From: Lachnospiraceae bacterium
GTDB lineage: Bacteria; Bacillota; Clostridia; Lachnospirales; Lachnospiraceae
Direction of reading: 5' to 3'
Length of the DNA stretch: 64,000 nucleotides
Assembly: GCA_017889125.1 (NCBI GenBank)
Contig: JAGHER010000088.1
Span: forward strand, 2,566 to 66,565
The stretch's first letter is position 1. Each line of letters starts with the position of its first letter. Positions 20,303 to 63,322 of this stretch are shown here, piece by piece. Below the pieces are notes generated by a model, which was given only the letters and a program-made list of their open reading frames with translations, did no database searches and had not been told where the DNA came from. The position numbers were made by a program, and so were the translations under genes.

Positions 20303-20339
20303 GGAGCCTTGGGCGGGGGAGATAAGCACTGAGGCAGAT

Positions 20340-20368
20340 GAGAGGCGGCCGGGAGGCCGTCTCTTTTT
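20340..20368 (+). terminator. Rho-independent terminator after the GNAT gene
   Basis: GAGA(GG)CGGCC ggga GGCCGTCTC followed by TTTTT (20364-20368). Confidence 0.7.
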
Positions 20369-20554
20369 CGTCAATTTTTGGGAGAAAATATAGTCAAAAT
20401 GGATAGAAAATCATCCTGTTTTCTTTAAAATAAAAGCATAACAGACAAAAAAGTAAAAAAACAGCACAAAAAGTAAAACCAGTTATCTTTTTATTTCCAT
20501 TCCGCAGCCTTATAATGAAGGCAGTTGAAAGCGAGAAAAAAAGGGGTGGTTTTC

Positions 20555-21499
20555 ATGAGCAGCAGGAAGGAAGAGAGCAAGGTTCGGGAGAAGAAGAAAA
20601 CAGGCTTTTCAGGTTTGTGGAGGACCATTTGCCGGCAGAAATATCTGATTCTCATGATGCTCCCGGGGCTATTATGGTTTTTGATTTTCAAATACTGTAC
20701 CTACGCAGGACTTGGACTGGCGTTTACCAATTACGGCTTTAAAAAGAGCGTGGACTTTGTGGGGCTGCGAAATTTCATTCGGCTTTTCCGGGCCCCGCAG
20801 TTCTGGACGGCTTTTAAGAATACGCTCATTATCAGCATCTGCAATATTGTCTTTTATTTTCCATTTCCAATTATTATTGCCCTGTTGATTAATGAGCTGC
20901 GTTCACTGCGGACAAAGCGGGCAGTACAGTTTATGATTTACATTCCGTATTTTTTCTCCTGGGTTGTGGTGGGAACGATCTTTGTGAATATTCTCTCCCC
21001 CTCCAGCGGCGTGGTAAATCAGATATTGAACGCCTTTGGATTTGATTCCATTTACTTTATGGCGGACCCCAAATGGTTTAGGGCGGTGCTGATCCTTTCC
21101 TACATCTGGCGGCAGATGGGATACGGTGCAGTTATCTATGTGGCGACCCTTTCTACAGTGGATGTCCAGTTGTATGAAGCGGCGGCCATCGATGGGTGCA
21201 GCAAGTGGAAGCAGGTATTTTATATCACCCTGCCCTCCATCAAGCCAACCATTGTGACCATGCTGCTGCTGAATTTATCACATGTCCTGCTGATTTTTGA
21301 GCAGATTATGGTTATGTACAATGCCTCCGTTTATTCGGTGAGCGATGTGCTGCAGACCTATACCTACCGAGAGGGAATCCTGTCCGGCAATATTGCCTAT
21401 GGAACGGCGATCAGCCTTTTTACCGGCGTGGTCAGTCTGGTGCTGGTGATGGGAACCAACTGGATTTCCAAGCATTTTCTGGAAGACTCGATTTTGTAG
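20555..21499 (+). CDS. ABC sugar permease, LplB/YtcP-like
   Basis: AAAGGGGTGG SD then ATG 20555 (track start 20525 rejected). Multi-pass membrane protein with EAA loop LYEAAAIDGCSKWKQVFYITLP. Confidence 0.88.
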   Translation: MSSRKEESKVREKKKTGFSGLWRTICRQKYLILMMLPGLLWFLIFKYCTYAGLGLAFTNYGFKKSVDFVGLRNFIRLFRAPQFWTAFKNTLIISICNIVFYFPFPIIIALLINELRSLRTKRAVQFMIYIPYFFSWVVVGTIFVNILSPSSGVVNQILNAFGFDSIYFMADPKWFRAVLILSYIWRQMGYGAVIYVATLSTVDVQLYEAAAIDGCSKWKQVFYITLPSIKPTIVTMLLLNLSHVLLIFEQIMVMYNASVYSVSDVLQTYTYREGILSGNIAYGTAISLFTGVVSLVLVMGTNWISKHFLEDSIL

Positions 21500-21514
21500 G
21501 AAGGGGTGGGGAAG

Positions 21515-22390
21515 ATGAAAAGAAAACCGGCTTCTAACCGGATCCGTGAGTCCGGTGCAAGAAAAATTTTCCGGGTGTTTAATGCCTTATTTCTGGCGGC
21601 GGTCTGTATTGTGATAATCATTCCCATCTGGAATGTGATTGTCACCTCTTTTGCAGAGGATAAGGATGTTATGGGCGGCGTATACCTGCTGATCCCCAAA
21701 TCCTTTACGTTAAAGAATTATATCCGGATTTTCAACAGCGGCTATATGCGGGGATTCTGGAATTCCATGTTTGTGGCGGTGGTAGGCACCGGGCTTGCCA
21801 TGCTGATTACGGTTCCTTTAGGCTATGCCCTGGCACAGAAGAAACTGATTGGCAGAAAGATTATCATGCGGCTGATCAGCATTACCCTGGTATTTGACGC
21901 AGGAATCATGCCCTTTTATATCCTGATTAAGAGCCTGGGACTTATTGATTCCCGCTGGTCACTGATTGTTCCCTTTATGATTTCTACCTTTAATTTGATT
22001 ATTGTAAAAAATTTTATGACCTCTATACCAGAAAGCCTGATTGAGGCGGCCAAGCTGGACGGCTGCAATGACCTGATGACCTTAATCCGGGTGGTGATTC
22101 CCCTTTCTGTGCCGATTCTCTCGGCGGTGATGCTGTTTTATTTTGTATCCTTCTGGAATCGCTATACCGAAGCGGTTATGTTCATCAATAACAGCTCAAA
22201 ATATACCCTGCAGGTAATGCTGCGCTCTCTGGTCTTTCAGAGTGACGGCTCTCTGGGCGAGGGAAACATTGTGTACGATAATATGAAAATGGCAGTAATG
22301 GTTCTGGGCATGCTGCCGGTGCTGGTGATTTACCCATTTGTACAGCGGTATTTTGTCTCTGGACTGATGGTCGGCGGTGTGAAGGAGTAG
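21515..22390 (+). CDS. ABC sugar permease, LplC-like
   Basis: GAAGGGGTGGGG before ATG 21515; EAA loop LIEAAKLDGCNDLMTLIRVVIP. Confidence 0.88.
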   Translation: MKRKPASNRIRESGARKIFRVFNALFLAAVCIVIIIPIWNVIVTSFAEDKDVMGGVYLLIPKSFTLKNYIRIFNSGYMRGFWNSMFVAVVGTGLAMLITVPLGYALAQKKLIGRKIIMRLISITLVFDAGIMPFYILIKSLGLIDSRWSLIVPFMISTFNLIIVKNFMTSIPESLIEAAKLDGCNDLMTLIRVVIPLSVPILSAVMLFYFVSFWNRYTEAVMFINNSSKYTLQVMLRSLVFQSDGSLGEGNIVYDNMKMAVMVLGMLPVLVIYPFVQRYFVSGLMVGGVKE

Positions 22391-33656: not shown

Positions 33657-35892
33657 TAATGTTATCCCTCATTTCCTTCGGCGACACGCCGAAATTTTTC
33701 TTAAATGCCCGCCGGAAAGAAGCGGCGTTGTTGTAGCCCAGATGCTGGTACAGGGTGGAAAGGCTTACGTTGGAATCCAGAATCATTTCCTTGGCCTTTG
33801 CCATACGCAGCCGCTCCAGATAGGTGGAAAAATTCTCCGATACTTCCTTTTTAAATAAGTAGCTGAAGTAATTTTCCGAGATTCCGAATTCGTCGGAAAT
33901 CTTGGTCAGTCCCAGATTGGGATCCGGGTAGTTGTTGTTGATGTATTCCTGGATTTTCAGGATCAGCTCATTTCCCTCAGAGGAATCGCCGCACACATCA
34001 CACAGCTCAGCGGCGATGGTATTCAGGCTGGTCAGGCTCATCTCTCCTTCAAACTGGCGGTCGATGAGATCCAGGATCTTAAGCCGCTCGCTGTCCAGAT
34101 CATCTACGGCAATGCTGTGGCGCTTCTTAAACAGGGTGCTTCGCACATCGGAGATCAGCCATCGCTGCTGGGTATAGGAGAGGCTGCGCTTAACGGTATT
34201 CTCCTTTCGGATCAGCTTAAACAGCTCATTCACCTGATCCTTGCTTCCCGTGGAGATAAAGCCGCCCAGCTGGACAGAAAGGCTGTCCGGGAAATAGTAA
34301 ACATCTGTAGAATGGGCAAAATCCACACTGCTTAAGATGTATTTGTCGGCAGTTGTTATGGATTTGGCATCCTTTGCCTGCTGATAGGATTTCCAGGTGT
34401 AGGAAATCAGGCCGTTGCGGGCGCCCAGGCCGCCGCGGATCCAAATGCCGTAATTCTCCAGCAGCTCCTTGTGAAGAGCGATAAAGACCTCCCGGTCATG
34501 ATTAACCACCTGCTCAAAGGGTACGGCCTTGTCTGAAGCGATGAGGACAGCGAAAGCCCGGTCTGAGGGCTTGTAAATGTAGCCGGTGTCCGGATAATAC
34601 CGTTTAAGCGCTTCTCTCACCAGCGTATCATAATTCTGGATAGCCAGCTCCATATCGGCAGAATGAACGCTGTTCCCCTCGGAAGGAGAAACCTCCGTAT
34701 ACAGCACATGGAACTTGGTATCCGGCCGGTCCAGAGAAAGCTCCTTGATAATATACTGCATCTCTTCATTGGTGGTGATGCTGCCCTCCATGATACGCCG
34801 CATGTAGGTCTCAATAACCATGGGCTTCTGCTTCTGCACCAGGAGATTCAGTGAAGTATTCATGGACTCGGTGGCGGAGAGCTCATCGGAGAGACGGGTA
34901 AATCTGCGGTTCCCCATAATTACGGATACAGCTGCAATGACCCCTCCCGCAGCCAGGGCTGCGATGGTAATCAGGGTGAACAGCCGCTGGTAAAGGGAGA
35001 TGGAGTAATATGCGCTGTTCTCCGGCTGCACCAGATAATACTGCCACCCATTGTAAGTAGAGACATTCTTCGTGACCAGCAGACTGGCGCCGCTGTCATC
35101 GGTGAGATGCGCGATGGAATCCGTGTAGGAAAGGCCGGAGAGGAGCGTGTAATCGGCAGCTGCGCCGGATTCAGATAAAAGCAGCATCAGAGAACCATTT
35201 TTATCAAAAATTGCCAGATAACCGGTGGTGTAACGGTTCAGATCAGCAAAAATCCGCTCCAGGCTTGCTGAGGTGATCTCATAACACATAATGGATTTAT
35301 TCTCTCTAAGCGAAACGTCAAAGATTGCCGGCGGACAGAGATAAAGATATTCCGCGGGCTTTGGCTGATCTGGCTGCAGGGGAAGCAGCTTGTTCCAGAA
35401 GCGCTGGTCCTGAAGCATGGCGCGCAGCTCCTCCGGAGCAATCCCGTAGGTAATCTCATTTAAAACATAGGAGTCAAAATTGACAAAACGGGTTGAAGAA
35501 ATTATGTAATTATTATCATACATGTAAAGGTAGGAATTGGCCGAGGGAAGCAGGAGCTCAACGGGCGTCAGGGACTTTAAGCTGGTCTGGGCGTTAAAGG
35601 CCTGATAAAAGAACGTGGGATCCTGGGAGGTAGTCAGCTCCGAGAGCTGGCGGAATTCCCGGTTAGAGGCTACCTGGCGGGAGGCTGCGCTCATCAGAGC
35701 CAGATTACTGTCCATTTCCGTGATGGCAGTGGAAAGCGCCTGCCGGTTCTGCTGATGGGTTCCATTCTTAACCTGCTGATAGGTAGCATAATAAAGGGCC
35801 ACACCAATGATCAGGATCAGCCCCAGGATTAAAATATAGGAAATTAAAAACTGGCTTTTGGAAAGCCGGCTGTTTTTTAGAGATTTTATCAT
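33640..35892 (-). CDS. Membrane-spanning one-component AraC-family regulator (two TM helices flanking a ~270-aa extracytoplasmic domain, C-terminal AraC HTH)
   Basis: TM1 FLISYILILGLILIIGVALYY, TM2 LFTLITIAALAAGGVIAAVSVIM. C-terminal YFSYLFKKEVSENFSTYLERLRM...GYNNAASFRRAFKKNFGVSP. Confidence 0.85.
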   Translation of the reverse strand: MIKSLKNSRLSKSQFLISYILILGLILIIGVALYYATYQQVKNGTHQQNRQALSTAITEMDSNLALMSAASRQVASNREFRQLSELTTSQDPTFFYQAFNAQTSLKSLTPVELLLPSANSYLYMYDNNYIISSTRFVNFDSYVLNEITYGIAPEELRAMLQDQRFWNKLLPLQPDQPKPAEYLYLCPPAIFDVSLRENKSIMCYEITSASLERIFADLNRYTTGYLAIFDKNGSLMLLLSESGAAADYTLLSGLSYTDSIAHLTDDSGASLLVTKNVSTYNGWQYYLVQPENSAYYSISLYQRLFTLITIAALAAGGVIAAVSVIMGNRRFTRLSDELSATESMNTSLNLLVQKQKPMVIETYMRRIMEGSITTNEEMQYIIKELSLDRPDTKFHVLYTEVSPSEGNSVHSADMELAIQNYDTLVREALKRYYPDTGYIYKPSDRAFAVLIASDKAVPFEQVVNHDREVFIALHKELLENYGIWIRGGLGARNGLISYTWKSYQQAKDAKSITTADKYILSSVDFAHSTDVYYFPDSLSVQLGGFISTGSKDQVNELFKLIRKENTVKRSLSYTQQRWLISDVRSTLFKKRHSIAVDDLDSERLKILDLIDRQFEGEMSLTSLNTIAAELCDVCGDSSEGNELILKIQEYINNNYPDPNLGLTKISDEFGISENYFSYLFKKEVSENFSTYLERLRMAKAKEMILDSNVSLSTLYQHLGYNNAASFRRAFKKNFGVSPKEMRDNINANAK

Positions 35893-36176
35893 ATTGTTAT
35901 TACCACACTTTTTTTGATTAACGTACTTTATTCTAATATGAAATTATAGAGGGAAAACGGAAGAAAAGCAACCAAAAAACGCAGAAAAAATGAAAATTTG
36001 CAAGGGAATCGTAAGATATGTACGCTGCTTTTGACCAGAATGCTGGCCTGGGAGACAGTGGTTTTTTGAAGTTCTTCCTATTATATAAAAAAAGAAAAAC
36101 ATGCAAAATGACCAGCGGATAAGAGAAAAACCATGCATTTTAGATAAAAGTGAACAAGAATATGAAAAAGTGTGCG

Positions 36177-36205
36177 TTGAAAATGTTCCAAAAGGATGAT
36201 ATGAT
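36177..36205 (+). promoter_or_regulatory. Extended -10 sigma-A promoter of the second LplABC-type locus
   Basis: TTGAAA 36177-36182, 17 nt, TGa-TATGAT (TG 36197-36198, hexamer 36200-36205). Upstream direct repeats GAAAAAC(C)ATGCA at 36094 and 36125 (31 bp apart) are candidate AraC sites. Confidence 0.5.
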
Positions 36206-36218
36206 AGCACTGTAAAAA

Positions 36219-36230
36219 AGGTGCGCACCT
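36219..36230. promoter_or_regulatory. 12-bp perfect palindrome in the 5' leader
   Basis: AGGTGCGCACCT flanked by A-runs, about 14 nt downstream of the -10 box. Confidence 0.3.
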
Positions 36231-36262
36231 AAAAACAAAAAAGAAATACAGGGAGGTAAAAC

Positions 36263-37861
36263 ATGAAGGTTAAGAAAATGCTTGCTGCCGGTATGGCTGC
36301 AACAATGGTAGCTTCTCTTGGACTGACCGGATGCTCCGGTTCTTCTAATGACAGCGCAGACACCAACACTCAGGCAAACAGCGAGACTGCTGCACAGGGC
36401 GGTGACAGTGCTGAGACTGAGGCAGATGCTTCTGCAGAGAGCGATGTTGAGAAGCCGGAAAAGATTAAGATCATGGTAGACGGTACCGTGTTCACCCAGG
36501 CTAATGCCAGAGATAAGTTCGAGGCAAGATGGGAGGAGCTGACCGGTATCGATCTGGAGATCATTCAGCCTGACCATGATGCTTACTATGATGTAGTTGG
36601 ACAGACCTTCGCATCTGGCCCAGAGAACTGGCCGGACGCAATGATCCTTTCTTCTTCCTATTATACTGGATATGCTGAGGAGGGCGCTCTCTGGGATATG
36701 ACTGCTGCCTGGGAGAATTCTGATCTGAAGGCTTCCGGACGGGTTACCGGCGAGGATGTTATTGAGAACATGAAGATCGACGGACAGTTATACGGCTTCC
36801 CGGTTACCAGAGGTAACGGCTGTATCACCTACGTAAAGAAGGCATGGTTAGACAACTGCGGTCTTGAGGCTCCCACCAACTACGAAGAGTACCTGGCTAT
36901 GCTGGAAGCCTTCACCACTGGCGATCCCGATGGAAACGGCGTTAACGGCGATACCTACGGTGTATCCGCAGCAGGCATCATCGCAGCTGAGGCTCCTTAT
37001 ACCAACTATCTGCCTGAATTCTACCAGGATGCATATTCTTCCTTCATTAAGGGCGATGACGGTGTTTGGTATGACGGCTTTACTCAGGACAACTTCAAGG
37101 ATGCTTTAGGCAGACTGAGAGAAGCATATGCAGCAGGCTACATTGATAAGGAAAGCTTAACCAATGGTACCAACGACTGCCGCAACAAGTTCTATGAGGA
37201 TAAGTTCGGCGTATTCACCTACTGGGCAGGTACCTGGAACACCAACTTAAAGACCAACCTGGAAGCACAGGGACTTGACGGCGAGTTAGTTGCCCTGCCG
37301 CCGATTGCTGAGCTTGGTGCTTACACCGAGAGAAACTCACCGGTATGGTGCATCACCGCTACCTGTGAGAATCCGGAAGGCGTATTTAAGTATCTCATCG
37401 AGTCCATGTTAGACGGCGGCGACATGCAGACCTTATGGACCTACGGTGTAGAGGATGTTCACTGGTCCACCAAGGCCGAGACCGTTTGCGACAACACCTA
37501 CGAAGAGGGCCAGTTCCACTTTGAGGAGAGTCTGGAGAGACCTGGCACCCAGTATACCAAGGCTCACATCGATCCCATGCTGTCTATCGTAACCTGGGAA
37601 AATGATCCGGGCAGCGCGGCTATCCCGGAGGAGAGCAAGAACTCTCAGCAGATTTTCAACGATAACTGTGTACAGGCACAGCTGGTTCCCTCTACTGAGG
37701 AGATGGCTACCTACAACGGCGACCTGACCACACTGAAGAACTCCATCATCGCTGATGTAGTTGTACAGGGTATTTCCATTGATGAGGCTTATGCACGCTT
37801 CGAGTCCGAGGGCGGTGCTCAGTGGTCTCAGATGATCGTTGATTCTCTGAACGCACAGTAA
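36263..37861 (+). CDS. Large extracellular solute-binding lipoprotein, LplA-like
   Basis: GGGAGG SD; MKVKKMLAAGMAATMVASLGLTGC has lipobox LTGC; 532 aa. Confidence 0.88.
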   Translation: MKVKKMLAAGMAATMVASLGLTGCSGSSNDSADTNTQANSETAAQGGDSAETEADASAESDVEKPEKIKIMVDGTVFTQANARDKFEARWEELTGIDLEIIQPDHDAYYDVVGQTFASGPENWPDAMILSSSYYTGYAEEGALWDMTAAWENSDLKASGRVTGEDVIENMKIDGQLYGFPVTRGNGCITYVKKAWLDNCGLEAPTNYEEYLAMLEAFTTGDPDGNGVNGDTYGVSAAGIIAAEAPYTNYLPEFYQDAYSSFIKGDDGVWYDGFTQDNFKDALGRLREAYAAGYIDKESLTNGTNDCRNKFYEDKFGVFTYWAGTWNTNLKTNLEAQGLDGELVALPPIAELGAYTERNSPVWCITATCENPEGVFKYLIESMLDGGDMQTLWTYGVEDVHWSTKAETVCDNTYEEGQFHFEESLERPGTQYTKAHIDPMLSIVTWENDPGSAAIPEESKNSQQIFNDNCVQAQLVPSTEEMATYNGDLTTLKNSIIADVVVQGISIDEAYARFESEGGAQWSQMIVDSLNAQ

Positions 37862-37891
37862 TTTTAGCGCCTGTTTAGGGAGGTATTTGTA

Positions 37892-38857
37892 ATGAGCAAA
37901 AAAGGAAAGGGTTCTGCAGTAGCAGTAAATGCTGCAGGCGAGAACAAACGTCCTCTTTTAGTATCTCTTCATTATTACAGAGGATTTTATGTGATGTTTC
38001 TCCCGGTACTGATTTTCGCGGTAGTGTTCCACTATCTGCCTATGGTTGGTATCCGGTACGCTTTCTGCACCTACAAGGGTATCAAGGCCCCGGAATTTAT
38101 CGGTCTGGGAAACTTTGAGAAGATGATCAGCATGCCAGGCTTCTGGAGTGCTTTTGGCAACACCCTTGTAATCAGTATTGTTAAGCTGCTTTTAAACACG
38201 TTCATGGCAGTTATTCTTTCGATCCTGCTGAACGAGCTCCGCAATCTGAAATTTAAGAAGTTTGCGCAGACAGTGGTATATCTTCCCCACTTTATGTCCT
38301 GGGTAGTTACGGCATCTGTATTTACCCTGATTCTGTCCCCTACCAACGCAGGTCTGGTTAACTCCATCCTGATTAAGCTGGGGATCCTTGATGAAGGTGT
38401 TTACTTCCTGGGATCTCAGGACTGGTGGCGGCCCATGTACTACGTGATCAATGTGTGGAAGGATACTGGATGGGGAACGATCATCTTCATGGCAACCCTT
38501 TCCGGAATCAGCCCCGAGCTTTATGAGGCGGCATCCATGGACGGCGCCGGACGCTGGAACTGCATGCGCTATATCACGCTTCCTGCGCTGGCCAACACCA
38601 TTATTACGGTTCTGATTCTTAACCTGGCCAAGATCATGAATCTGTTCGAGTCTGTATTCGTATTACAGAATGACGCGGTTGTTAAGCAGGCGGACGTACT
38701 TCAGACTTACATTTATACACAGACATTCAACTCCGGAGCCCTTCCGGACTACGGTTATACGACGGCAGTAGGTCTTGCCTCCTCTATCGTAGGCTGTATT
38801 CTGGTTCTTGTCTGCAACAAGGCAAGCTATAAGGTTCGCGGCAGAGGTATCGTATAA
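37892..38857 (+). CDS. ABC sugar permease, LplB-like
   Basis: Multi-pass membrane protein, EAA loop LYEAASMDGAGRWNCMRYITLP. Confidence 0.88.
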   Translation: MSKKGKGSAVAVNAAGENKRPLLVSLHYYRGFYVMFLPVLIFAVVFHYLPMVGIRYAFCTYKGIKAPEFIGLGNFEKMISMPGFWSAFGNTLVISIVKLLLNTFMAVILSILLNELRNLKFKKFAQTVVYLPHFMSWVVTASVFTLILSPTNAGLVNSILIKLGILDEGVYFLGSQDWWRPMYYVINVWKDTGWGTIIFMATLSGISPELYEAASMDGAGRWNCMRYITLPALANTIITVLILNLAKIMNLFESVFVLQNDAVVKQADVLQTYIYTQTFNSGALPDYGYTTAVGLASSIVGCILVLVCNKASYKVRGRGIV

Positions 38858-38872
38858 GGAGGAGGGGAAAAC

Positions 38873-39712
38873 ATGAAGACTAAGAAAGCAACCGCATTTG
38901 ACTATGTGTTGGTGCTGATATTCGTGTTAATTTGTTTTATCATGATTATCCCCATCTACAAAGTCCTGATTGACTCGCTTGACTTAAAGACGGCTTATGG
39001 TATGAAGCTTCTGCCGGAGCAGTTTGGTCTGGCTGGCTACAAGTCGGTATTTACTAATCCGACCCTGTACCGTCCGTTCCTGGTATCCTGCCTTACCACG
39101 GTAGCAGGTACCTTCTGCGGTCTGGCAATTTCCACTCTGGGCGCTTACGTGCTGATTCAGTGGAAGATGCCCGGAAGAAACTTTTTTGCAAACCTTCTGC
39201 TCTTTACAATGATTTTCAACGGTGGTATGATTCCTACATACCTGGTTATGAGGAGCCTGCACCTGACGAATACATTGTGGGTAGTAATTCTTCTTCCGGC
39301 AATTAACGTTTACAACCTGGTTCTGATGAGAAACTTCTTCGAAGGAATCCCGGGAAGCTTGTTTGAGTCAGCAGAGATGGATGGATGCTCTCCCATGAGA
39401 ATCTTCTTCCAGATCGTGCTTCCGCTTTCCAAGGCGGCTCTGACAGCGATCGGTCTGATGTTCGCAGTTTCTTACTGGAACGATTACACCAACTACAAGC
39501 TGTATATCACAAATGAGAACCTGTATAACTTCCAGATGAAGCTGAGATCCGTTATCATGGGTAGCGATTTGCCTACAGCAGTTGGCGGCGCAACGGAGAA
39601 CACGGTAAAGAACGCTGCAGTTATCGTAGCTATCCTTCCGTTCATGATTATCTATCCGTTCTGCCAGCAGTATTTCATCCAGGGTGTTAATATCGGAGCC
39701 GTAAAGGAATAA
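38873..39712 (+). CDS. ABC sugar permease, LplC-like
   Basis: EAA loop LFESAEMDGCSPMRIFFQIVLP; GGAGGGG SD. Confidence 0.88.
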   Translation: MKTKKATAFDYVLVLIFVLICFIMIIPIYKVLIDSLDLKTAYGMKLLPEQFGLAGYKSVFTNPTLYRPFLVSCLTTVAGTFCGLAISTLGAYVLIQWKMPGRNFFANLLLFTMIFNGGMIPTYLVMRSLHLTNTLWVVILLPAINVYNLVLMRNFFEGIPGSLFESAEMDGCSPMRIFFQIVLPLSKAALTAIGLMFAVSYWNDYTNYKLYITNENLYNFQMKLRSVIMGSDLPTAVGGATENTVKNAAVIVAILPFMIIYPFCQQYFIQGVNIGAVKE

Positions 39713-39722
39713 TGGCTTTTTC

Positions 39723-39751
39723 AAAAAGGGGCAGGTATACTGCCCCTTTTT
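39723..39751 (+). terminator. Strong rho-independent terminator (A-run/stem/T-run, potentially bidirectional)
   Basis: AAAAAGGGGCAG gtata CTGCCCCTTTTT, perfect 12-bp arms. Confidence 0.85.
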
Positions 39752-39836
39752 GCTTGATTAGGGCAGAAAATGACATAAATTAAATTTCGGCTGGAATTCG
39801 GCTAGACCTGGTATCCAGCCAGACATGGAGGGAAAA

Positions 39837-41357
39837 ATGTACCAGAACCCAATTTTGTATGCTGACTATTCAGATCCGGACGTAGTCCGGGTAGGAGAGG
39901 ATTACTATATGGTAGCCTCTTCTTTTACTTATCTGCCGGGAGTGCCTCTTCTTCATTCGAAGGATCTGGTTCACTGGGAGATTATCAATTACTGTGTGCG
40001 CTCACTTCCTTTTGAGAAGTATAATAAGCCGTCCCATGGCTCCGGCACCTGGGCGCCGTCTATCCGGTATCATCAGGGAACCTTTTATGTGTTTGTTCCT
40101 CTTCCGGATGAGGGGATCTTTGTGGCCCGCTCCACTGACCCTTACGGCGAGTTTACCCTGAACTGCATCCAGGAGGCAAAGGGCTGGATCGATCCCTGCC
40201 CGCTGTGGGATGATGATGGAAAGGCTTACATGATCTTTGCTTATGCCAGAAGCCGGGCAGGAATCAAGCACCGTCTGATGGTGGCGGAGATTGATCCGGA
40301 ATGCACGAAGTTACTTACGGAGCCGAGACTGGTATTTGACGGAGAGCAGCTGGGCCCCACTACCGAAGGCCCCAAATTCTACAAGTATGACGGCTGGTAC
40401 TATGTGCTGATGCCCTCTGGCGGTGTGGCTACTGGATGGCAGTCGGCCCTGCGCTCTAAGTCGGTGTACGGCCCCTATGAGTACCGGATTGTTATGCATC
40501 AGGGTGGGACAGAGGTAAATGGCCCCCATCAGGGCGGCTGGGTAACCGGCACAGATGGACGGCACTGGTTTGTTCATTTCCAGGATGTGATTGAGCTGGG
40601 ACGGATCACCCACCTGCAGCCCATGTGCTTTAACGCAGGCTGGCCCTTCATCGGCGAAGAGAAGAATGGGGACGGCATCGGTGAGCCGGTAGAGGAGTGG
40701 AGCCTCCCCGCAGAGGGACAGCCCCTTTACCAGATTGCCCAGTCGGATGATTTCGCGGATACCAAGCTGGGTCTCCAGTGGCAGTGGCAGGCGAATCCCG
40801 ATGATTCCAATTATGAACTGGATGGGAAGACTGGCCTTCACCTGTTCTGCAAGGCAAATGATACCCGGGAAAATCTTCTGTGGTATGCGCCCAATGCACT
40901 GACCCAGATTCCCCAGCATCAGGCGCTGTTTATGACGGCAAAGATCCAGCTGTGTGCTGCAGAGCAGGGAGACCTGGCGGCCCTGGGCATGATCGGCCAC
41001 AAGTATGCTTACGCCGGACTGGAGAAGACGGCGGAGGGGAACCGTCTGGTGCTTTATACAGGCACGGTGACCAACAAAGATCTGGAGGGAGAGGCTGTGG
41101 AGACCCTGGCGGAGACCTGCGCTTATGAGGGGGATACGGTTTATATTCGGATGGAGCTTTCCGAGAAGAAGGCCTACCGCTTCCAGTGGTCTCAGGACGG
41201 CATCCGCTATCACCGGTTTGGTGAGGATCAGCCCCTGCATCGTGCTACCTGGACGGGAGCTAAGCTGTGTCTGTGGAGTGCCAACAAAGAAAATCGGAAA
41301 TCGGAGGGATACGGCCGGTATGATTTTGTACACATCGAAGACCGAAGCGGCTGCTAA
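39837..41357 (+). CDS. GH43 beta-xylosidase/alpha-L-arabinofuranosidase-type enzyme with C-terminal beta-sandwich
   Basis: NPILYADYSDPDVVRVGEDYYM, TWAPSIRYHQGTFYVF, IDPCPLWDDDGKAYM, EGPKFYKYDGWYYVLM. GGAGGG 39827-39832 favours ATG 39837 over 39825. Confidence 0.88.
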   Translation: MYQNPILYADYSDPDVVRVGEDYYMVASSFTYLPGVPLLHSKDLVHWEIINYCVRSLPFEKYNKPSHGSGTWAPSIRYHQGTFYVFVPLPDEGIFVARSTDPYGEFTLNCIQEAKGWIDPCPLWDDDGKAYMIFAYARSRAGIKHRLMVAEIDPECTKLLTEPRLVFDGEQLGPTTEGPKFYKYDGWYYVLMPSGGVATGWQSALRSKSVYGPYEYRIVMHQGGTEVNGPHQGGWVTGTDGRHWFVHFQDVIELGRITHLQPMCFNAGWPFIGEEKNGDGIGEPVEEWSLPAEGQPLYQIAQSDDFADTKLGLQWQWQANPDDSNYELDGKTGLHLFCKANDTRENLLWYAPNALTQIPQHQALFMTAKIQLCAAEQGDLAALGMIGHKYAYAGLEKTAEGNRLVLYTGTVTNKDLEGEAVETLAETCAYEGDTVYIRMELSEKKAYRFQWSQDGIRYHRFGEDQPLHRATWTGAKLCLWSANKENRKSEGYGRYDFVHIEDRSGC

Positions 41358-56806: not shown

Positions 56807-58063
56807 ATGAGTCTTTTTGAGATGAGAAAGCCGTTAGAGGATAATATACACTACTTTTTGAAATGGACGGTCCTTGCCGGGATCATTGGCGGCCTGGGGG
56901 GCCTTGCGGGGGGCTGCTTTGCCCGGAGCGTGGTCTGGGCCACCGGTTTCCGGCAGGATAATGGCTGGACGCTGTATCTGATGCCCATCGCGGGCCTGCT
57001 CATTGTCTTTCTTTATCGCCTTTTGGGGGAGGAAAAAAACCGGGGCACCAATATGGTCATTGAATCCATCTCTGCACAGGAGGAGGTAACGCCCGCTACC
57101 GCACCATTAATCTTTATTGCCACGGTGCTCACCCACCTGACTGGCGGTTCTGCCGGACGTGAGGGGGCGGCCCTGCAGCTGGGAGGCAGCATCGGCAGTA
57201 TGATCGGGAAGCGGATTGACCTGGATGAGAAGGATTTAAAGATTGCCGTCATGTGCGGGATGAGCGCAGTCTTTGGCGCCCTCTTCGGTACGCCGGTGGC
57301 GGCAGGGGTCTTTTCCATGGAGGTCATCAGCATCGGCGTCATGTATTACGCGGCGCTGGTGCCCTGCCTGTTTTCCGCCTTTCTTGGCGCTGAGATCTCC
57401 AGTCTTCTGGGGGTAGAGGGAGAGCGGTATCAGATTCTGGATATTCCCTCCTTCAGTCTGTCCTCTGCGGCCTATGTGGTCTTTCTTGGCATGCTCTGTG
57501 CAGTGGTCAGCATCGGCTTCTGTATGCTCCTTCACCGGTCAGAGCATCTTTGGCGGGAGAAAATTCCTAATTCCTGGGTGAGAATCTTGGCGGCCAGCGG
57601 GGTGTTAATCCTTCTGACGCTGCTCTGCGGCACCCGGGATTACAACGGCGGCAGCATGATGCTGATCGAGCACGCCATGGAAGGCCATGCCCGATATCAG
57701 GACTTTCTGTTGAAGGCGCTGTTTACGGCCGTCACCTTAAGCGGCGGCTTTAAGGGCGGAGAGATCGTCCCCACTCTTTGTGTGGGATCTACCCTTGGCT
57801 GTGTGGCGGGCCAGCTGATGGGCATATCCCCATCCTTTTCCGCGGCCTGCGGCATGGCGGCTCTTTTTGTAGGGGTGACCAACTGTCCCATCTCCTCGCT
57901 GATTATTGCTCTGGAGATGTTTGGCGGGGAGGCGCTGCCCTTCTTTGCCATTGTGGTGGCGGTGTCCTTCACTCTGTCGGGGTATTACGGCCTTTACAGC
58001 AGCCAGAAATTTGTGTATTCGAAAACAAGGACGGAATTTATTAACCGGAAGACCAATGAGTAG
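56807..58063 (+). CDS. ClC/EriC-family anion channel or antiporter
   Basis: About 10-12 TM helices; LTGGSAGREGAALQLGG and GGFKGGEIVPT selectivity-filter-like blocks. Confidence 0.85.
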   Translation: MSLFEMRKPLEDNIHYFLKWTVLAGIIGGLGGLAGGCFARSVVWATGFRQDNGWTLYLMPIAGLLIVFLYRLLGEEKNRGTNMVIESISAQEEVTPATAPLIFIATVLTHLTGGSAGREGAALQLGGSIGSMIGKRIDLDEKDLKIAVMCGMSAVFGALFGTPVAAGVFSMEVISIGVMYYAALVPCLFSAFLGAEISSLLGVEGERYQILDIPSFSLSSAAYVVFLGMLCAVVSIGFCMLLHRSEHLWREKIPNSWVRILAASGVLILLTLLCGTRDYNGGSMMLIEHAMEGHARYQDFLLKALFTAVTLSGGFKGGEIVPTLCVGSTLGCVAGQLMGISPSFSAACGMAALFVGVTNCPISSLIIALEMFGGEALPFFAIVVAVSFTLSGYYGLYSSQKFVYSKTRTEFINRKTNE

Positions 58064-58120
58064 TTTTGGCGGTGTATCTGACTGCCGAGCACATGAAGGT
58101 TTAGAAAAGGAGGGGTATGC

Positions 58121-59452
58121 TTGCTTTTGCGATATATTGTAAGTAATTTTAAGTCCATTGGACACCCGCTGGAGTTTAATATGTTCCCAACAGAAGAAAG
58201 CACTGATGAGCGATTTTTAAAAACAATTGAAACAAGGGCCGGTGAGTGGAAGGTATTGCAGAGGGGAGCCTTATTTGGCCCTAATGCATCGGGAAAATCC
58301 TCCTTTATTGAGTCAGTTGGCTTTGCACGGGATTATCTTGTCTCTGGACAAAAAAGCGGAAAAGGGACTGGCGTTAATCAGTTCAGAGGTGATTTTGAAG
58401 ACCTTGAGGGGATTTCATCATTTCAATTCATGTTTTATCTCAATGGTGAGGTTTATGAATATGGTTTTTCCTTGGATCGGCGCCAGGTACATGAAGAATG
58501 GCTGATGGAGCTAAGTGAATGCGAGCTTGAGCCATTATTTACCCGTGTTACTGATGCAGATGGAAAAACGGAGATTGAAATTGAATCGAGATTTGCAGAC
58601 AGCCAGTCCAAGGATAGAATTTTAGCGGATGTACTGAAAAGCAGTATTCAGGAAAACCAGAAGAATCAGCTTTTCTTATATAAGCTTTACGATAATGGAA
58701 TAAAAAAAGCAGAAGAAATCGTTGACTGGTTTAAGAATCTTCAGATTATATTCCCTGAGACAACTGTCCAGGCACTGCCGATTCGCATGCGGGCAGATGA
58801 AAACATGCGCAATTACATTGCAGAAATGCTGGATCAGATGGATACTGGTGTTTATGGGATATCTGTTGCAAGCGATGAAATTGACTTTCATGAATTTGCG
58901 GAAAAGCTGGATTTACCGAAAGAGTTTGTGGATGATATTGAAGAAATTAAGAATGGAATTGTAAATATAGCAGGCCGGTATTTTATCTTTTCTGAAAATG
59001 AAAAGAAAAAGACCATTTTGGTTCAGCTGAAATTCAATCATCAGCTGAACCGAAAAAATGTTCAATTCAATATTGATGAAGAATCGGACGGCACGCAGCG
59101 CCTGGTTGATTTGCTTCCAATGCTGTTTACCATTGGGAAAACACCGGCGATTTATTTTGTTGATGAAATTGACAGAAGCCTGCATACAAAGCTGTCGCAG
59201 TTTTTGCTGGATGAATTTGCCTCAAAAGCAGAGGATGGAGAGAATCAGATTGTTTTTACTGCACATGATGTAAGTTTAATTAATCTGGAACAGTTCCGTC
59301 AGGACGAAATCTGGTTTATTGAGAAAACACAAACAGGAGAATCGACGATAAAGCCATTTTCTGATTTTTCGGTCAAAGAAGGCCAAGATACACTGAAAGC
59401 GTATTTAAATGGCAGGTTTGGAGCCGTTCCGATGATAAGGGGGATGCAGTAA
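58121..59452 (+). CDS. ABC-type AAA ATPase (AAA_15/AAA_21 class; AbiLi/RloA/OLD-ATPase-like)
   Basis: TTG start with GGAGG at 7 nt; opening MLLRYIVSNFKSIG. Walker A GPNASGKSS, signature-like ESDGTQRL, Walker B IYFVDEIDRSLH, H-loop FTAHD. Confidence 0.8.
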   Translation: MLLRYIVSNFKSIGHPLEFNMFPTEESTDERFLKTIETRAGEWKVLQRGALFGPNASGKSSFIESVGFARDYLVSGQKSGKGTGVNQFRGDFEDLEGISSFQFMFYLNGEVYEYGFSLDRRQVHEEWLMELSECELEPLFTRVTDADGKTEIEIESRFADSQSKDRILADVLKSSIQENQKNQLFLYKLYDNGIKKAEEIVDWFKNLQIIFPETTVQALPIRMRADENMRNYIAEMLDQMDTGVYGISVASDEIDFHEFAEKLDLPKEFVDDIEEIKNGIVNIAGRYFIFSENEKKKTILVQLKFNHQLNRKNVQFNIDEESDGTQRLVDLLPMLFTIGKTPAIYFVDEIDRSLHTKLSQFLLDEFASKAEDGENQIVFTAHDVSLINLEQFRQDEIWFIEKTQTGESTIKPFSDFSVKEGQDTLKAYLNGRFGAVPMIRGMQ

Positions 59453-60078
59453 TGCCGCTTTTAAGAAGCCGGGTGCCCTTTACGCCCCAGCATCCGTTTC
59501 GCCAGGTCAGGCCAAAAACCAGCAAAATTATTTTTCTTTCTTGTGAGGGCAGTGTTACTGAGGAAGAGTATTTTGTGCTCATTTCGGATATTTACAGAGA
59601 GGTTAAAAGCAAAATCCAATTTATTTCCGTGGCGGAAGATGCGGTTTTTACTGATCCGAAACACAGGACAAAAGATCAGGCAAAGATGCTCAGTAAGGTG
59701 CGTCCGAAACATTTGGTTGAGCGAATCGATCAATTTAAAGCAGAAAAAGAATCAATTTATCAGTTTTCGAAATATCCGGTATCTGCAGGGCATCCTTATG
59801 AAAAAACTGACCATTTTCGCACAAGACTTGCAAGTCTCGGTGCACCGTTGAAGGAGAAGAAGCATATTCGCTTTTCGGATTACAGCGACGAAAAGATTAA
59901 ATTGGCGATTCACCGGGCAGAGGAGCTGCATGTGGATAAGCAGGATTTGTGCCCACAATATTTTGCAACTACCGTATATTTGCTTTTGCAGAAGATCATG
60001 ATTATGCTGCCGGAAGAGGATATCGTAAAGAGGGCAGCAGAAGCCGATACAGAAGAGATGAAATTTTCCAGGATTTAA
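59452..60078 (+). CDS. RloB/AbiLii-like protein (divergent)
   Basis: TAATG coupling to the ATPase gene. N-terminal KIIFLSCEGSVTEEEYF resembles the RloB hallmark (CEGxxTExxYF). C-terminal ATTVYLLLQKI resembles the family's C-terminal helix. The central acidic core was not recognised. Confidence 0.6.
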   Translation: MPLLRSRVPFTPQHPFRQVRPKTSKIIFLSCEGSVTEEEYFVLISDIYREVKSKIQFISVAEDAVFTDPKHRTKDQAKMLSKVRPKHLVERIDQFKAEKESIYQFSKYPVSAGHPYEKTDHFRTRLASLGAPLKEKKHIRFSDYSDEKIKLAIHRAEELHVDKQDLCPQYFATTVYLLLQKIMIMLPEEDIVKRAAEADTEEMKFSRI

Positions 60079-60091
60079 GGAGGGAATAGTG

Positions 60092-60763
60092 ATGAAAAAA
60101 TGGATTCATTTTGCCTCTGCCGGACTGCTGGCCCTTTGCCTTGTCAGCTGCCAGAGTGCGGGAAGTGGCCAGCAGGGAGGGGCTTCAGAGAATGGGGCGT
60201 CGGCTGGAACGGAAGCGCAGGTCGGGGCGGAAGGCCAGCCAAGCGGCGAGGCGGAAGCAAAAGATAAAGGGGAAGGGGACGCTGTGCAGGAAACAGATGC
60301 ATCCGCAGAGACGAAGGTGGAAGCCGGAGTCCAGATTCCCAATCCCATGGAGGAAGCAGAGGACGGGGAATCCTTAGAGGCCATCGGCCTTTCCATGGCA
60401 GTTCCGGAGGATGCTTCGGATGTGGAATACTATGTGATCAGCGATGTGGTAGGACAGATGTCTTTTGTCTGGGAGGATCATGTCTTTACCTGCAGAGGCT
60501 CCGCTACGGCAGAGGATTTTGCGGGGATTTTTGAGGAATTTGAGGAGACGGAGACGGTTTTTGACGCAGAAGGCACTGACGAAGGCGTCCGGGTCCGCTC
60601 TACGGTAAGCGGCGGCCGCCTGGCGGACTGGAGCATTGATGGCGTAAAGTATACGCTGTATACACCGGATTCTGTGGAAGAGGAAATCATGGAGGGGCTT
60701 TGCCTGGAGATTTCCGGAATATCTTCGGAAACGGAGCCTTTGGCAGAAGGAGAAGGGGAATAA
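60092..60763 (+). CDS. Lipoprotein with acidic low-complexity linker, function unknown
   Basis: AAGGAGGG then ATG 60092. MKKWIHFASAGLLALCLVSC has lipobox LVSC, then a Gly/Glu/Ala-rich stretch and a ~110-aa C-terminal domain. Confidence 0.75.
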   Translation: MKKWIHFASAGLLALCLVSCQSAGSGQQGGASENGASAGTEAQVGAEGQPSGEAEAKDKGEGDAVQETDASAETKVEAGVQIPNPMEEAEDGESLEAIGLSMAVPEDASDVEYYVISDVVGQMSFVWEDHVFTCRGSATAEDFAGIFEEFEETETVFDAEGTDEGVRVRSTVSGGRLADWSIDGVKYTLYTPDSVEEEIMEGLCLEISGISSETEPLAEGEGE

Positions 60764-60774
60764 GGAGGTAGCGT

Positions 60775-62772
60775 ATGGCACTGTATGATTATAACCGGGC
60801 GCAGAAGCTTGGAAAAAAGCAGTATCAGGCATCGTTGATGAAGGGCGAGCATCCCTATCTTCCGGTGCTGGATGACATTCTTTCTTATACGGATATTGTG
60901 TCGGAGGTAAATCTGGGGCTGGTGGATATTCCCCTGAAGCGGATTGTAGGAACCGTCACCCAGGGAAGAACCAATGCCTTTGCCAGCAACTTTATGCCTC
61001 TCCTTCCGGACAGAACGGAATTTGGTGCCAAATGGTCGGCTCTCTATGACCATCAGCTGCGGGACGGCATCCATGATCCCATCATTGCCTACGAGTTTAT
61101 GAACAAGTATTATGTGCAGGAGGGAAATAAGCGGGTCAGCGTTCTGAAATACTTAAATGCCTTCAGCATTCCGGGAATTGTGACCCGCCTTATGCCCAGG
61201 CGGAGCGATGATAAGGAAAACAAGCTGTATTATGAATTCCTGGATTTTTATCAGGTGTCCTTTAACAGCGATGTATGGTTCAGCCAGGAGGGAAGCTACA
61301 AGCGCCTTCTGGAGGTAATGGGACTTAAGCCGGATCAGGTGTGGGATGATGACACCCGCCTGTACTTCAAGGCGGTTTATGAGCGATTTTCCAAGGTCTT
61401 TGATGAAAAGGGCGGCAATGCCATCGGGATTACCTGTTCAGATGCCTTCTTAACTTATGCGGAGATCTTTGGCTATGACACGGTGAAGGAAAAGACAGAG
61501 ACGGAGATTCAGAAGGACCTGACCAAGATCTGGAAGGAGTTGGTATTAAAGAGCCAGGGCGGAAAGGTAGCGCTGGTGGAGCAGCCGGAGGAAGTGCGTC
61601 AGTCCTCCTCCAAGAATCTGATTAATCTGATTCTGCCGGGAAGCGGTGAATCGGAGCATCTGAAGGTTTCCTTCGTGTATGCCAAGACACCGGAGACCTC
61701 CAGCTGGACCTATGGCCATGAGCTGGGGCGGCTTTATCTGGAGCAGACCTTCCCGGGAGAGATTGAGACGGCCTGCTTTTCCAATGCCGACACGGAGACC
61801 GCCATCCAGCAGTCCATCGATATGGCCATTGCGGCGGGCAGCGACATTATCTTTACCACCACACCAAGGATGATTCAGGCCAGTGTGAAGGCTGCGGTGC
61901 AGCACCCAGAGGTAAAGATCTTAAACTGCAATGTCAATACCTCCTATTCCTCTGTGCGTACTTATTACCGGCGGATGCATGAGGCCAAATTTCTCATGGG
62001 CGCCATTGCGGCGGCCATGGATCAGAGCGGTCGGCTGGGGTATATCGCCGATTACCCCATTTACGGCTCCCTGGCAAATGTAAATGCCTTTGCCATCGGC
62101 GCCCGGATGATTGATCCCCGGGTGAAGGTTTTCCTGAAGTGGAAGTGCGTGAAGGATGCAGATGCTTTGGAGGAGCTTCTGGAGGAGGGGGTTAACTACA
62201 TCTCTGCCGATGATATGATTACGCCCAATTCTCCCTCCAGGGAGTTCGGGCTGTTTCATCGAGAGGAGGACGGAAGTCTTTCCACTCTGGCCACGCCTAT
62301 CTGTGACTGGGGAAAATTCTATGTGCGGATCGTAAAGATTATCCGTCAGGGCGGCTGGAATACGCTGGATACCAAGGGAAAACAGGCGGTAAATTACTGG
62401 TGGGGAATGTCGGCGGACGTAATCGATGTGATCTGTTCCCAGAATCTTCCCCAGGGAACCAACCGGCTGATTACCTTCCTTAAAAATTCCATTCGGTCGG
62501 GAAGCTTCCAGCCCTTCGAGTGTGATGTATACTCCAGGGATGGCGTGCTTCGCTGCAGTGAGAGCAAAAAGCTGTCGCCGGAGGAGATTGTAACCATGAA
62601 CTGGCTGGCGGAAAATGTGGTTGGCACTGTGCCGCCGGCAGATGAGCTCACAGAAGAGGGCCAGGATCTGGTACGTCTTCAGGGGATAAAATTGGATGAG
62701 AATACGGAGGCAGTAATAGGAGATAATGAAGATTCTGGTAGTAGCGGACGAGGAGTCCAAGATCCTTTATGA
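60775..62772 (+). CDS. Cytoplasmic 665-aa protein: ParB/Srx-like N-terminal domain + BMP/PnrA-like periplasmic-binding-fold domain
   Basis: AAGGAGG SD. DPIIAYEFMNKYYVQEGNKRVSVLKYL resembles the ParB N-terminal box. The C-terminal half (VSFVYAKTPETSSWTYGH...LGYIADYPIYGSLANVNAFAIGA) resembles BMP-family lipoproteins, but there is no signal peptide. Confidence 0.65.
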   Translation: MALYDYNRAQKLGKKQYQASLMKGEHPYLPVLDDILSYTDIVSEVNLGLVDIPLKRIVGTVTQGRTNAFASNFMPLLPDRTEFGAKWSALYDHQLRDGIHDPIIAYEFMNKYYVQEGNKRVSVLKYLNAFSIPGIVTRLMPRRSDDKENKLYYEFLDFYQVSFNSDVWFSQEGSYKRLLEVMGLKPDQVWDDDTRLYFKAVYERFSKVFDEKGGNAIGITCSDAFLTYAEIFGYDTVKEKTETEIQKDLTKIWKELVLKSQGGKVALVEQPEEVRQSSSKNLINLILPGSGESEHLKVSFVYAKTPETSSWTYGHELGRLYLEQTFPGEIETACFSNADTETAIQQSIDMAIAAGSDIIFTTTPRMIQASVKAAVQHPEVKILNCNVNTSYSSVRTYYRRMHEAKFLMGAIAAAMDQSGRLGYIADYPIYGSLANVNAFAIGARMIDPRVKVFLKWKCVKDADALEELLEEGVNYISADDMITPNSPSREFGLFHREEDGSLSTLATPICDWGKFYVRIVKIIRQGGWNTLDTKGKQAVNYWWGMSADVIDVICSQNLPQGTNRLITFLKNSIRSGSFQPFECDVYSRDGVLRCSESKKLSPEEIVTMNWLAENVVGTVPPADELTEEGQDLVRLQGIKLDENTEAVIGDNEDSGSSGRGVQDPL

Positions 62773-63322
62773 TTTTTATAAGCCCGGGATGCTGGATGAT
62801 ATCGATCTGATACTGGCCTGCGGCGATCTGAAGGCAGGGTATCTGTCCTTCCTGGTAACCATGTCCCATGCGCCGGTTCTGTATGTGTGCGGAAACCACG
62901 ATCATTATGACAGTCACTCCATGAATGGATGCATCTGTGTGGAGGATGATATTTATGTCTATAAGGGGGTGCGGATCCTGGGGTTGGGCGGTTCCATGCA
63001 GTACATCCCCAGGGCAGATAACCAGTACACGGAGCGTGCCATGAGCCGGCGGATCCGCCGGCTCTGGTGGAAGCTTTTCCGAAGCGGCGGGTTTGACATC
63101 CTTATGACCCATGCTCCGGCCTTTGAGCTGAATGACATGGAGGATCTTCCCCACCGGGGATTTAAAAGCTTCCTGAAGCTGATGGATAAATACAAGCCGA
63201 AATTTTTCGTGCACGGACATATTCATGCCACATACGGCGGCAAATTCAAGCGGCTGGATCACTATAAGGATACCACTGTTGTGAATGCTTACGAAAAGTA
63301 CATAATCGAATATCCGGATTAA
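62726..63322 (+). CDS. Small metallophosphoesterase
   Basis: MKILVVADEE..., ILACGDL, VCGNHD, VHGHIH blocks; 47-nt overlap with the upstream gene. Confidence 0.8.
   Translation: MKILVVADEESKILYDFYKPGMLDDIDLILACGDLKAGYLSFLVTMSHAPVLYVCGNHDHYDSHSMNGCICVEDDIYVYKGVRILGLGGSMQYIPRADNQYTERAMSRRIRRLWWKLFRSGGFDILMTHAPAFELNDMEDLPHRGFKSFLKLMDKYKPKFFVHGHIHATYGGKFKRLDHYKDTTVVNAYEKYIIEYPD

Follow-up and report, generated by a model that had tools for sequence, protein, structure and literature searches.

A low-GC AbiL/RloAB-type cassette with an intact ATPase gene and a core-deleted effector gene in a Lachnospiraceae operon

We analysed 64,000 nucleotides of a Lachnospiraceae bacterium (GenBank assembly GCA_017889125.1, contig JAGHER010000088.1, positions 2,566 to 66,565 of the forward strand), referred to here as the window, which contain a two-gene islet of low guanine plus cytosine (GC) content between a ClC chloride channel gene and a lipoprotein gene. 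The first gene of the islet (gene 1) encodes an ATPase resembling AbiLi and the second (gene 2) a shortened protein of the RloB/AbiLii type, suggesting that the islet is a member of the AbiL family of phage defence systems that has probably lost its effector. The features of the locus are given in Table 1.

Table 1. Features of the islet and of its immediate flanks (positions in the window; SD, Shine-Dalgarno sequence; aa, amino acids)
Feature	Position	Strand	Remarks
ClC chloride channel gene, left flank	56807..58063	+	Pfam Voltage_CLC
Inserted low-GC islet	58064..60078	+	2,015 bp; between ClC stop (TAG, 58061-58063) and native GGAGGG SD of lipoprotein gene
Leader	58064..58120	+	57 nt; from alignment with regions upstream of relatives' ATPase genes
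Gene 1, AbiLi-type ABC (AAA_21) ATPase	58121..59452	+	443 aa, full-length; TTG start
Walker A GPNASGKS	58277-58300	+	aa 53-60
Signature-like ESDGTQRL	59081-59104	+	aa 321-328
Walker B FVDEID	59156-59173	+	aa 346-351
H-loop FTAHD	59255-59269	+	aa 379-383
Gene 2, remnant of RloB/AbiLii-type effector gene	59452..60078	+	208 aa; Pfam RloB; coupled to gene 1
Junction of 213-bp (71-codon) in-frame deletion	59778..59779	+	reads KYP|VSAGHPYEK
Native SD and spacer of lipoprotein gene	60079..60091	+	GGAGGGAATAGTG; retained from the uninterrupted operon
Lipoprotein gene, right flank	60092..60763	+	223 aa, the same length being called in all related contigs; ATG start, not GTG at 60089

Measured in 400-nt windows, the GC content was 0.375-0.43 over positions 58000-60000 versus 0.55-0.58 just outside, and it was back to 0.56 on the right side. 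The mean was 0.41 for the islet, 0.548 for the 5 kb to its left, 0.537 for the right flank and 0.524 for the whole window. The islet held the lowest 1-kb bins of the window, followed by positions 20001-21000, at 0.436. This last bin lies over a GNAT-like open reading frame (19667-20302) and over the first part of a pair of sugar ABC permeases (20525-22390); positions 35001-40000 were also somewhat GC-poor (0.465-0.49).

The product of gene 1 matched the AbiLi model of PADLOC with an E-value of 2.5e-71 (238 bits) and Pfam AAA_21 with 3.5e-31; weaker PADLOC matches were obtained with AriA (6.6e-30), HEC-01A, MADS3 and PtuA, and the match to GajA was marginal (0.0011). It was colinear from end to end with relatives of 443-448 aa at 72-85% identity and had every motif intact, including the Walker A, signature-like, Walker B and H-loop motifs expected of the AbiLi-type ATPase of an AbiL system. 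The start of the gene is called soundly, because four relatives compared (L090, L093 and L098 among them) begin their ATPase with a GTG that aligns with the TTG of gene 1, behind a conserved GGAGGGG. As a start codon, the TTG of the disarmed copy may be weaker.

Gene 2 is translationally coupled to gene 1, its start overlapping the stop of gene 1 in the sequence TAATG (59450-59454), and it thus occupies the place of the adjacent, co-oriented AbiLii/RloB partner in AbiL. Its product retained the N-terminal CEGxxTEEEYF motif (59542-59574; IIFLSCEGSVTEEEYF is found at aa 26-41) and the C-terminal helices. However, the DxD strand and the SNPxFExWLLLH motif of a complete RloB domain were missing from it. 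With 47.4 bits, the match to the Pfam RloB profile (PF13707) exceeded the gathering score of 31.5, but it was broken into two pieces, of which the stronger spanned profile positions 1-58, whereas an intact relative (P0003) gave 109.4 bits over the whole profile, 1-195. Similarly, the PADLOC AbiLii model reached only 3.9e-5 (22.4 bits), as compared with 64-101 bits for intact proteins. A database search yielded 330 relatives, nearly all of them 250-271 aa long, and the coverage obtained by BLASTP in one piece was only about 52% of the query. A near-identical full-length protein was not present in the database searched, in which the closest intact relative was about 79% identical.

The difference in length was explained by a deletion within gene 2, as compared with its relatives of 260-271 aa. 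According to the protein alignment, the missing segment corresponded to residues 110-180 of P0003, which run EDEFWILTDVDQNWS ... YAVSNPFFEIWLLLHHD ... FA, and with it the invariant DVD and SNPFFEIWLLLHH motifs were taken out. In a DNA alignment with the intact locus L009 a clean in-frame gap of 213 bp was observed, with at most weak microhomology (TATCC/TATGC) beside it. The blastn alignment was split exactly at 59779, and tblastn placed residues 1-109 and 179-260 of P0003 on either side of this position. No copy of the deleted segment was found by tblastn elsewhere in the window.

An earlier note on this DNA, made from the letters alone, had described a segment of foreign composition at this place, with two genes coupled by TAATG, the first for an ABC/AAA-type ATPase and the second for a protein of the RloB/AbiLii kind. 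These points were borne out: the dip in windowed GC was real (0.41 versus 0.54-0.55), the motifs quoted were all present in the genes to which they had been ascribed, and the description of the islet as the only foreign-looking segment of the window was roughly right. The 71-codon deletion had been overlooked.

The columns lost from gene 2 were invariant or nearly so in the 82 relatives scanned (D118, D120, N158, F160, F161, W164, L165 and L166). Both the DxD and SNPFFE[IVMA]W motifs were kept in 115 of the 120 best RloB clusters, and DxD and SNPFFE-type motifs were present even in very distant RloB proteins (L105 and L104; Clostridium estertheticum plasmid and Lactococcus prophage). An AlphaFold2 (AF2) model of the intact P0003 (predicted local distance difference test, pLDDT, 78.8; predicted template modelling score, pTM, 0.79) placed in the deleted residues 110-180 a strand at 112-118 that ends in DVD, a helix at 136-150, a second strand at 153-157 and a second helix at 159-166, so that the deletion would remove two of the four core beta-strands. 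The model of the window protein, obtained with nearly the same alignment, had a pLDDT of 51.2 and a pTM of 0.36 and showed no beta-sheet, a drop consistent with loss of the fold. Because gene 2 is without the invariant DxD and SNPxFExWLLLH core of its family, the conservation pattern and the models together indicate that the effector is very probably dead.

The same pair of 443-aa and 208-aa proteins was present in every one of the 18 places listed as carrying either the exact ClC protein or the exact lipoprotein of the window, 8 for ClC (out of 23 contigs) and 10 for the lipoprotein, which came from more than 15 samples and from both Logan and ENA/SPAdes assemblies. A strain variant with 8 single nucleotide polymorphisms (SNPs) in 1,655 nt bore the same deletion; three of its SNPs, two nonsynonymous and one synonymous, fell within gene 2, which are too few to judge selection. 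Neither a full-length allele nor an empty site was found within the species among the places listed with exact flanking proteins. Within the population sampled, no allele other than the disarmed one was observed.

The genomic setting of the islet was established by scanning the ClC protein against one genome per species and mapping the neighbouring genes by tblastn. The order FtsY-ThrDH-ClC was kept across about 80 Lachnospiraceae loci. The closest species found was Candidatus Caccovicinus merdipullorum (L044), with protein identities of 98% for FtsY and ThrDH, 93% for Bmp and 89% for ClC, and a DNA identity of about 78-88% in most 300-nt windows. At its empty site, which reads ...AATGAC TGA GGAGGGAAGATA ATGAAAAAATGG, only 12 nt separate the ClC stop from the ATG of the lipoprotein gene, GGAGGGAAGATA and the ATG following directly after the stop, in the same arrangement as the native SD retained at 60079..60091 in the window. 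The order ClC-lipoprotein-Bmp-metallophosphoesterase without any insert was found also in at least seven other relatives (L010, L012-L014, L021, L022 and L063), an adjacency that the earlier note had proposed to look for. Because related species, including the closest one, have ClC next to the lipoprotein gene and no insert, the islet is a lineage-specific insertion of foreign DNA directly after the ClC stop, inside the ClC-lipoprotein-Bmp operon of a Candidatus Caccovicinus-like species. The compositional break and the absence of the islet from the orthologous site of close relatives together mark it as horizontally acquired.

The left part of the leader, from 58064 to about 58093, showed no homology to other cassettes. 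Alignment with relatives placed the beginning of the conserved cassette leader at about 58094 and its SD, GGAGGGG, at 58109-58115, and the blastn homology to other cassettes began at 58101. Exactly two copies of the octamer AAGGAGGG were present in the window, one at 58107 and the other at 60077. On this ground, the earlier note had suggested an insertion right at the SD of the lipoprotein gene, with the upstream SD now supplied by the cassette; the two copies were confirmed, but the one at 58107 is the ribosome-binding site of gene 1 itself, lying 43 nt inside the insert and kept in relatives. The copy at 60077 is formed by the stop codon TAA of gene 2 and the native GGAGGG of the lipoprotein gene, GGAGGG being present at the empty site as well. 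The octamer was accordingly rejected as a target-site duplication, its copies being two unrelated SD sites. Signals for a promoter or terminator belonging to the cassette were not in excess over shuffled sequence, and no terminator was detectable between the cassette and the lipoprotein gene that now lies downstream of it. ARAGORN found no transfer RNA (tRNA) or transfer-messenger RNA gene in the whole window, and no Rfam family reached its gathering score anywhere in it.

The cassette is common in gut Clostridia, as indicated by the 330 database matches. Its intact copies were isolated two-gene units lying in unrelated chromosomal, housekeeping contexts of other gut Clostridia and were always GC-poorer than the host flanks. 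A Lactococcus prophage carries an annotated AbiL-like pair in moron position, and the intact clostridial relatives scored on the AbiL models as well as this pair did. Relative to canonical RloB, the clostridial proteins had two additions, a conserved extension of 25 aa at the N-terminus and an insert of about 45 aa that is helical (aa 59-105) and missing from L104 and L105. Judged from these scores and alignments, the clostridial cassette is a subclade of the known AbiL/RloAB family and not a new kind of system. On sequenced plasmids or phages only matches below 32% identity were obtained, and no donor element was identified. The closest intact relatives that have the complete cassette, L090-L092, carry at about 1116-1673, directly upstream of the ATPase gene, a gene for an ImmA-like Peptidase_M78, which hints that some copies travel in regulatory modules resembling those of prophages or integrative and conjugative elements.

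Other deletion alleles were found among the relatives of gene 2: P0061 and P0074 lacked residues 110-137, P0018 lacked 98-137 and P0013 lacked 156-184. P0074 (L115-L118) was found in several samples, on 13 contigs in all, where it follows a 455-aa ATPase in a different neighbourhood, and P0018 (L119-L120) in two samples, behind a 443-aa ATPase and again in a different chromosomal context. The core deletions in lineages of these types removed the DxD strand or the SNPFFEIW motif, and the ATPase was full-length in both lineages examined. Two or three lineages besides that of the window thus appear to have suffered independent in-frame deletions of the core, which hints at a recurrent decay beginning with the effector; the protein search favours in-frame alleles, frameshifted ones being under-sampled, and about one in three random deletions is in-frame.

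Taken together, these results make it probable that the islet is a horizontally acquired cassette of the AbiL/RloA-RloB type in which the ATPase has remained intact and the core of the effector has been deleted, that is, a disarmed relic giving no protection of the AbiL type. In PARIS, AriA sequesters AriB until a phage trigger frees this tRNase (PMC11464382), and toxicity assays have shown, for AAA/TOPRIM_OLD pairs other than those of the present clade, that the TOPRIM_OLD toxin is neutralised by the AAA ATPase (PMC10440598), as in type II toxin-antitoxin-like pairs of the NetFlax D29 type, where the effector is toxic on its own and is held back by its cognate ATPase. By analogy with both, the ATPase of intact relatives might act as a sensor and as an antitoxin restraining an OLD/Toprim-like RloB nuclease, and a phage cue would free the nuclease and lead to an aborted infection. 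In the window copy the effector step would be impossible, with no cleavage to be expected from a protein that has lost the core. As neither a promoter nor a terminator is evident within the cassette, which lies in a host operon, we propose that read-through expression of a toxic effector would be costly and be selected against. Decay would then start with the effector, because prior loss of the neutralising ATPase would be harmful.

Several observations weigh against this interpretation or parts of it. The remnant of gene 2 is still an open, translationally coupled frame of 208 aa. The nonsynonymous divergence (dN) between the remnant and L009 was 0.112, as compared with 0.115 between L090 and L009, and was therefore not accelerated, which implies a recent deletion or else a remainder still under constraint; the synonymous divergence (dS) was saturated against all available relatives, so that constraint since the deletion is not measurable from dN/dS. 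A residual, non-catalytic role of the remnant may accordingly exist, and the confidence of an AF2 model, such as the low one obtained for the remnant, does not measure the stability of a protein. As regards mobility, only short repeats at chance level were found at the islet ends when direct, inverted and terminal repeats were sought, with no target-site duplication, and no integrase or transposase gene was found in the insert, which contains two genes only; the islet shows no mobility signature (recombinase, target-site duplication, terminal repeats or tRNA target). Finally, phage defence by members of the clostridial clade is presumed by analogy.

The assignment of the effector to the Toprim nucleases bears on the same question. 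The Toprim fold has a four-stranded parallel sheet with a conserved glutamate after strand 1 and a DxD after strand 3. RloB has been related to OLD_TOPRIM by HHpred (PMC10440598), and a model of AbiLii superimposes on the OLD nuclease 6NJV, the mechanism of AbiL itself being uncharacterised according to a 2026 review (PMC13064643). Our own comparisons did not recover this relationship, which rests on the literature: a Foldseek search of the PDB with the model of the intact relative gave nothing significant (best E-value 0.02, unrelated folds), the comparison of the RloB alignment with P2 Old by hhalign yielded a probability of 0.1 (profile of low diversity, effective number of sequences, Neff, 2.0, with a single sequence as target), and a search of PDB sequences with the RloB profile found nothing. 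The only match of Foldseek in BFVD was another RloB-like protein.

Among the other explanations, we considered that the module has been repurposed and that the core-less remnant is kept for a role other than that of a nuclease, either as an adaptor or regulator that binds the ATPase or as a dominant-negative, antitoxin-like protein blunting related AbiL systems that enter the cell. A deletion that left both the frame and the translational coupling preserved would fit such a role, as would the dN of the remnant, which was not elevated, and the independent in-frame core deletions found elsewhere, with full-length ATPases in the two lineages examined and with P0074 and P0018 recovered from 13 contigs and from two samples, respectively. 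However, one third of random deletions would be in-frame by chance and the protein search enriches such cases by ascertainment; the saturation of dS leaves constraint after the deletion beyond measurement, the three SNPs of the only within-species comparison are too few, and poor order is predicted for the remnant. We consider this role unlikely. The broader form of the idea, in which a core-less RloB accompanied by an intact ATPase is a recurrent selected state (in the window, P0061/P0074, P0018 and possibly P0013) and not decay, seems to us slightly more doubtful still. If it were true, a disarmed AbiL module could sense phage for an effector acting in trans, or could act as a dominant-negative guard against related cassettes.

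The islet could also be a working abortive-infection module of the AbiL type, with the 208-aa protein as a naturally short, active RloB effector. Gene 2 scores above the Pfam gathering threshold and keeps the catalytic-type glutamate motif CEGxxTE at its N-terminus, both frames are intact and coupled, and the population sampled is fixed for the allele. Nevertheless, the residues lost are invariant or nearly so in the 82 relatives and are conserved in very distant RloB proteins too, the core has lost two of its four strands, with a collapse of the predicted fold of the remnant, and the AbiLii score is 22 bits versus 64-101 bits in intact proteins, all of which makes an active effector very unlikely. 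The earlier note had seen in the pair a plausible defence module of a divergent kind; membership in the AbiL family stands, but a working effector does not, since DxD and SNPxFExWLLLH are gone, and neither does the divergence, since the intact relatives score like lactococcal AbiL. The sharp GC break at both junctions and the metagenomic origin of the assemblies might raise the suspicion of an error in assembly or binning, for example a chimeric low-GC join or a collapsed repeat, but such an artefact is hardly credible given that identical junctions and the identical deletion recur in contigs assembled independently from more than 15 samples by two pipelines, that the SNP-bearing strain variant has the same deletion and that no repeat which could collapse lies beside it.

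The disarmed relic that we favour has some consequences for annotation. Automated procedures could count the locus as AbiL, given that the Pfam RloB cut-off is passed and both the AbiLi and AbiLii models of PADLOC are matched, despite the missing effector core; the locus thus illustrates the need for checks of domain coverage in censuses of defence systems in gut metagenomes. It also documents the clean insertion of a promoter-less defence cassette in a housekeeping operon. Together with the two or three other core-deleted lineages, it gives a small hint that in modules composed of an ATPase and a toxic nuclease the effector may be the first to decay, the order to be expected with the ATPase as antitoxin.

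Some observations were made on the flanks of the islet and on the related contigs. A recombination tract co-transferred with the insertion was considered and dropped, as the sliding identity to L044 was mostly about 78-88% on both sides and delimited no clear tract. This identity dipped in intergenic and other divergent stretches, and near the junction nothing stood out except the N-terminal half of the lipoprotein, which is of low complexity. Identity between the lipoprotein (60092-60763) and the L044 orthologue (9267-9764) was no more than about 49%, as compared with 89-98% for the neighbouring genes, and the N-terminal half of the lipoprotein, rich in Gly, Glu and Ala, was essentially unalignable to that of L044 (DNA identity 0.34-0.47). 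The lipoprotein looks like a fast-evolving surface protein. Further downstream, the last 47 nt (62726-62772) of the Bmp-family gene (60775-62772) are shared, in a different frame, with the metallophosphoesterase gene (62726-63322). The overlap is also present in relatives (in L044, Bmp ends at 11793 and the next gene starts at 11750), and it is therefore a conserved overlap and not a miscalled start. Two contigs labelled as a Bacteroides thetaiotaomicron metagenome-assembled genome (MAG; L025, JAWZDV010000021.1) and as Prevotella sp. CAG:279 (L067, CAVHPN010000026.1) showed FtsY-ThrDH-ClC synteny of the Lachnospiraceae type, with FtsY and ThrDH 85-92% identical; they were probably mis-binned in the public MAGs.

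Among known systems, AbiL (AbiLi and AbiLii of the Lactococcus lactis plasmid pND861, with the homologues ORF55 and ORF56 of prophage proPhi7) has the same layout, in which a gene of the RloB family overlaps the end of the gene for an AAA_21 ABC ATPase of about 410-450 aa. The AbiLi model gave 238 bits with the window protein and 254 bits with that of the lactococcal prophage, and the AbiLii model gave 66-72 bits with intact clostridial partners and 64 bits with ORF56; in addition, both the window cassette and lactococcal AbiL are small, low-GC accessory cassettes. They differ in that the partner in the window is without the equivalent of residues 110-180, with DxD and SNPxFExWLLLH, the ATPase of gene 1 is only about 23% identical to the lactococcal one, and the clostridial clade has the N-terminal extension and the helical insert described above. 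The RloA/RloB pairs found in type I restriction-modification loci of Campylobacter jejuni are similar in that gene 2 and all 82 scanned relatives match PF13707 and are paired with an AAA_21-type ATPase. However, no restriction-modification gene lies near the window cassette, which stands alone in a housekeeping operon, and gene 2 matches PF13707 only in two fragments, unlike P0003.

AbiL has been grouped next to PARIS among the systems that combine an ABC ATPase with TOPRIM (PMC11464382). PARIS, formed by the ABC ATPase AriA and the Toprim tRNase AriB of the DUF4435 family, shares with the cassette a two-gene logic in which an ATPase sensor is combined with an effector of the Toprim superfamily, and gene 1 does match AriA. 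The effector here is, however, RloB and not DUF4435, neither gene 2 nor its intact relatives giving a match to DUF4435 or AriB in Pfam and PADLOC; the AriA match, much weaker than that to AbiLi, reflects the core common to AAA_21 proteins, and the effector of the window is truncated. The OLD-family nucleases and GajA of Gabija have an ATPase of the same class as that of gene 1. They differ in that the ATPase and the Toprim domain are fused in one chain, whereas in the cassette they are split over two genes, and the score of GajA with gene 1 is marginal.

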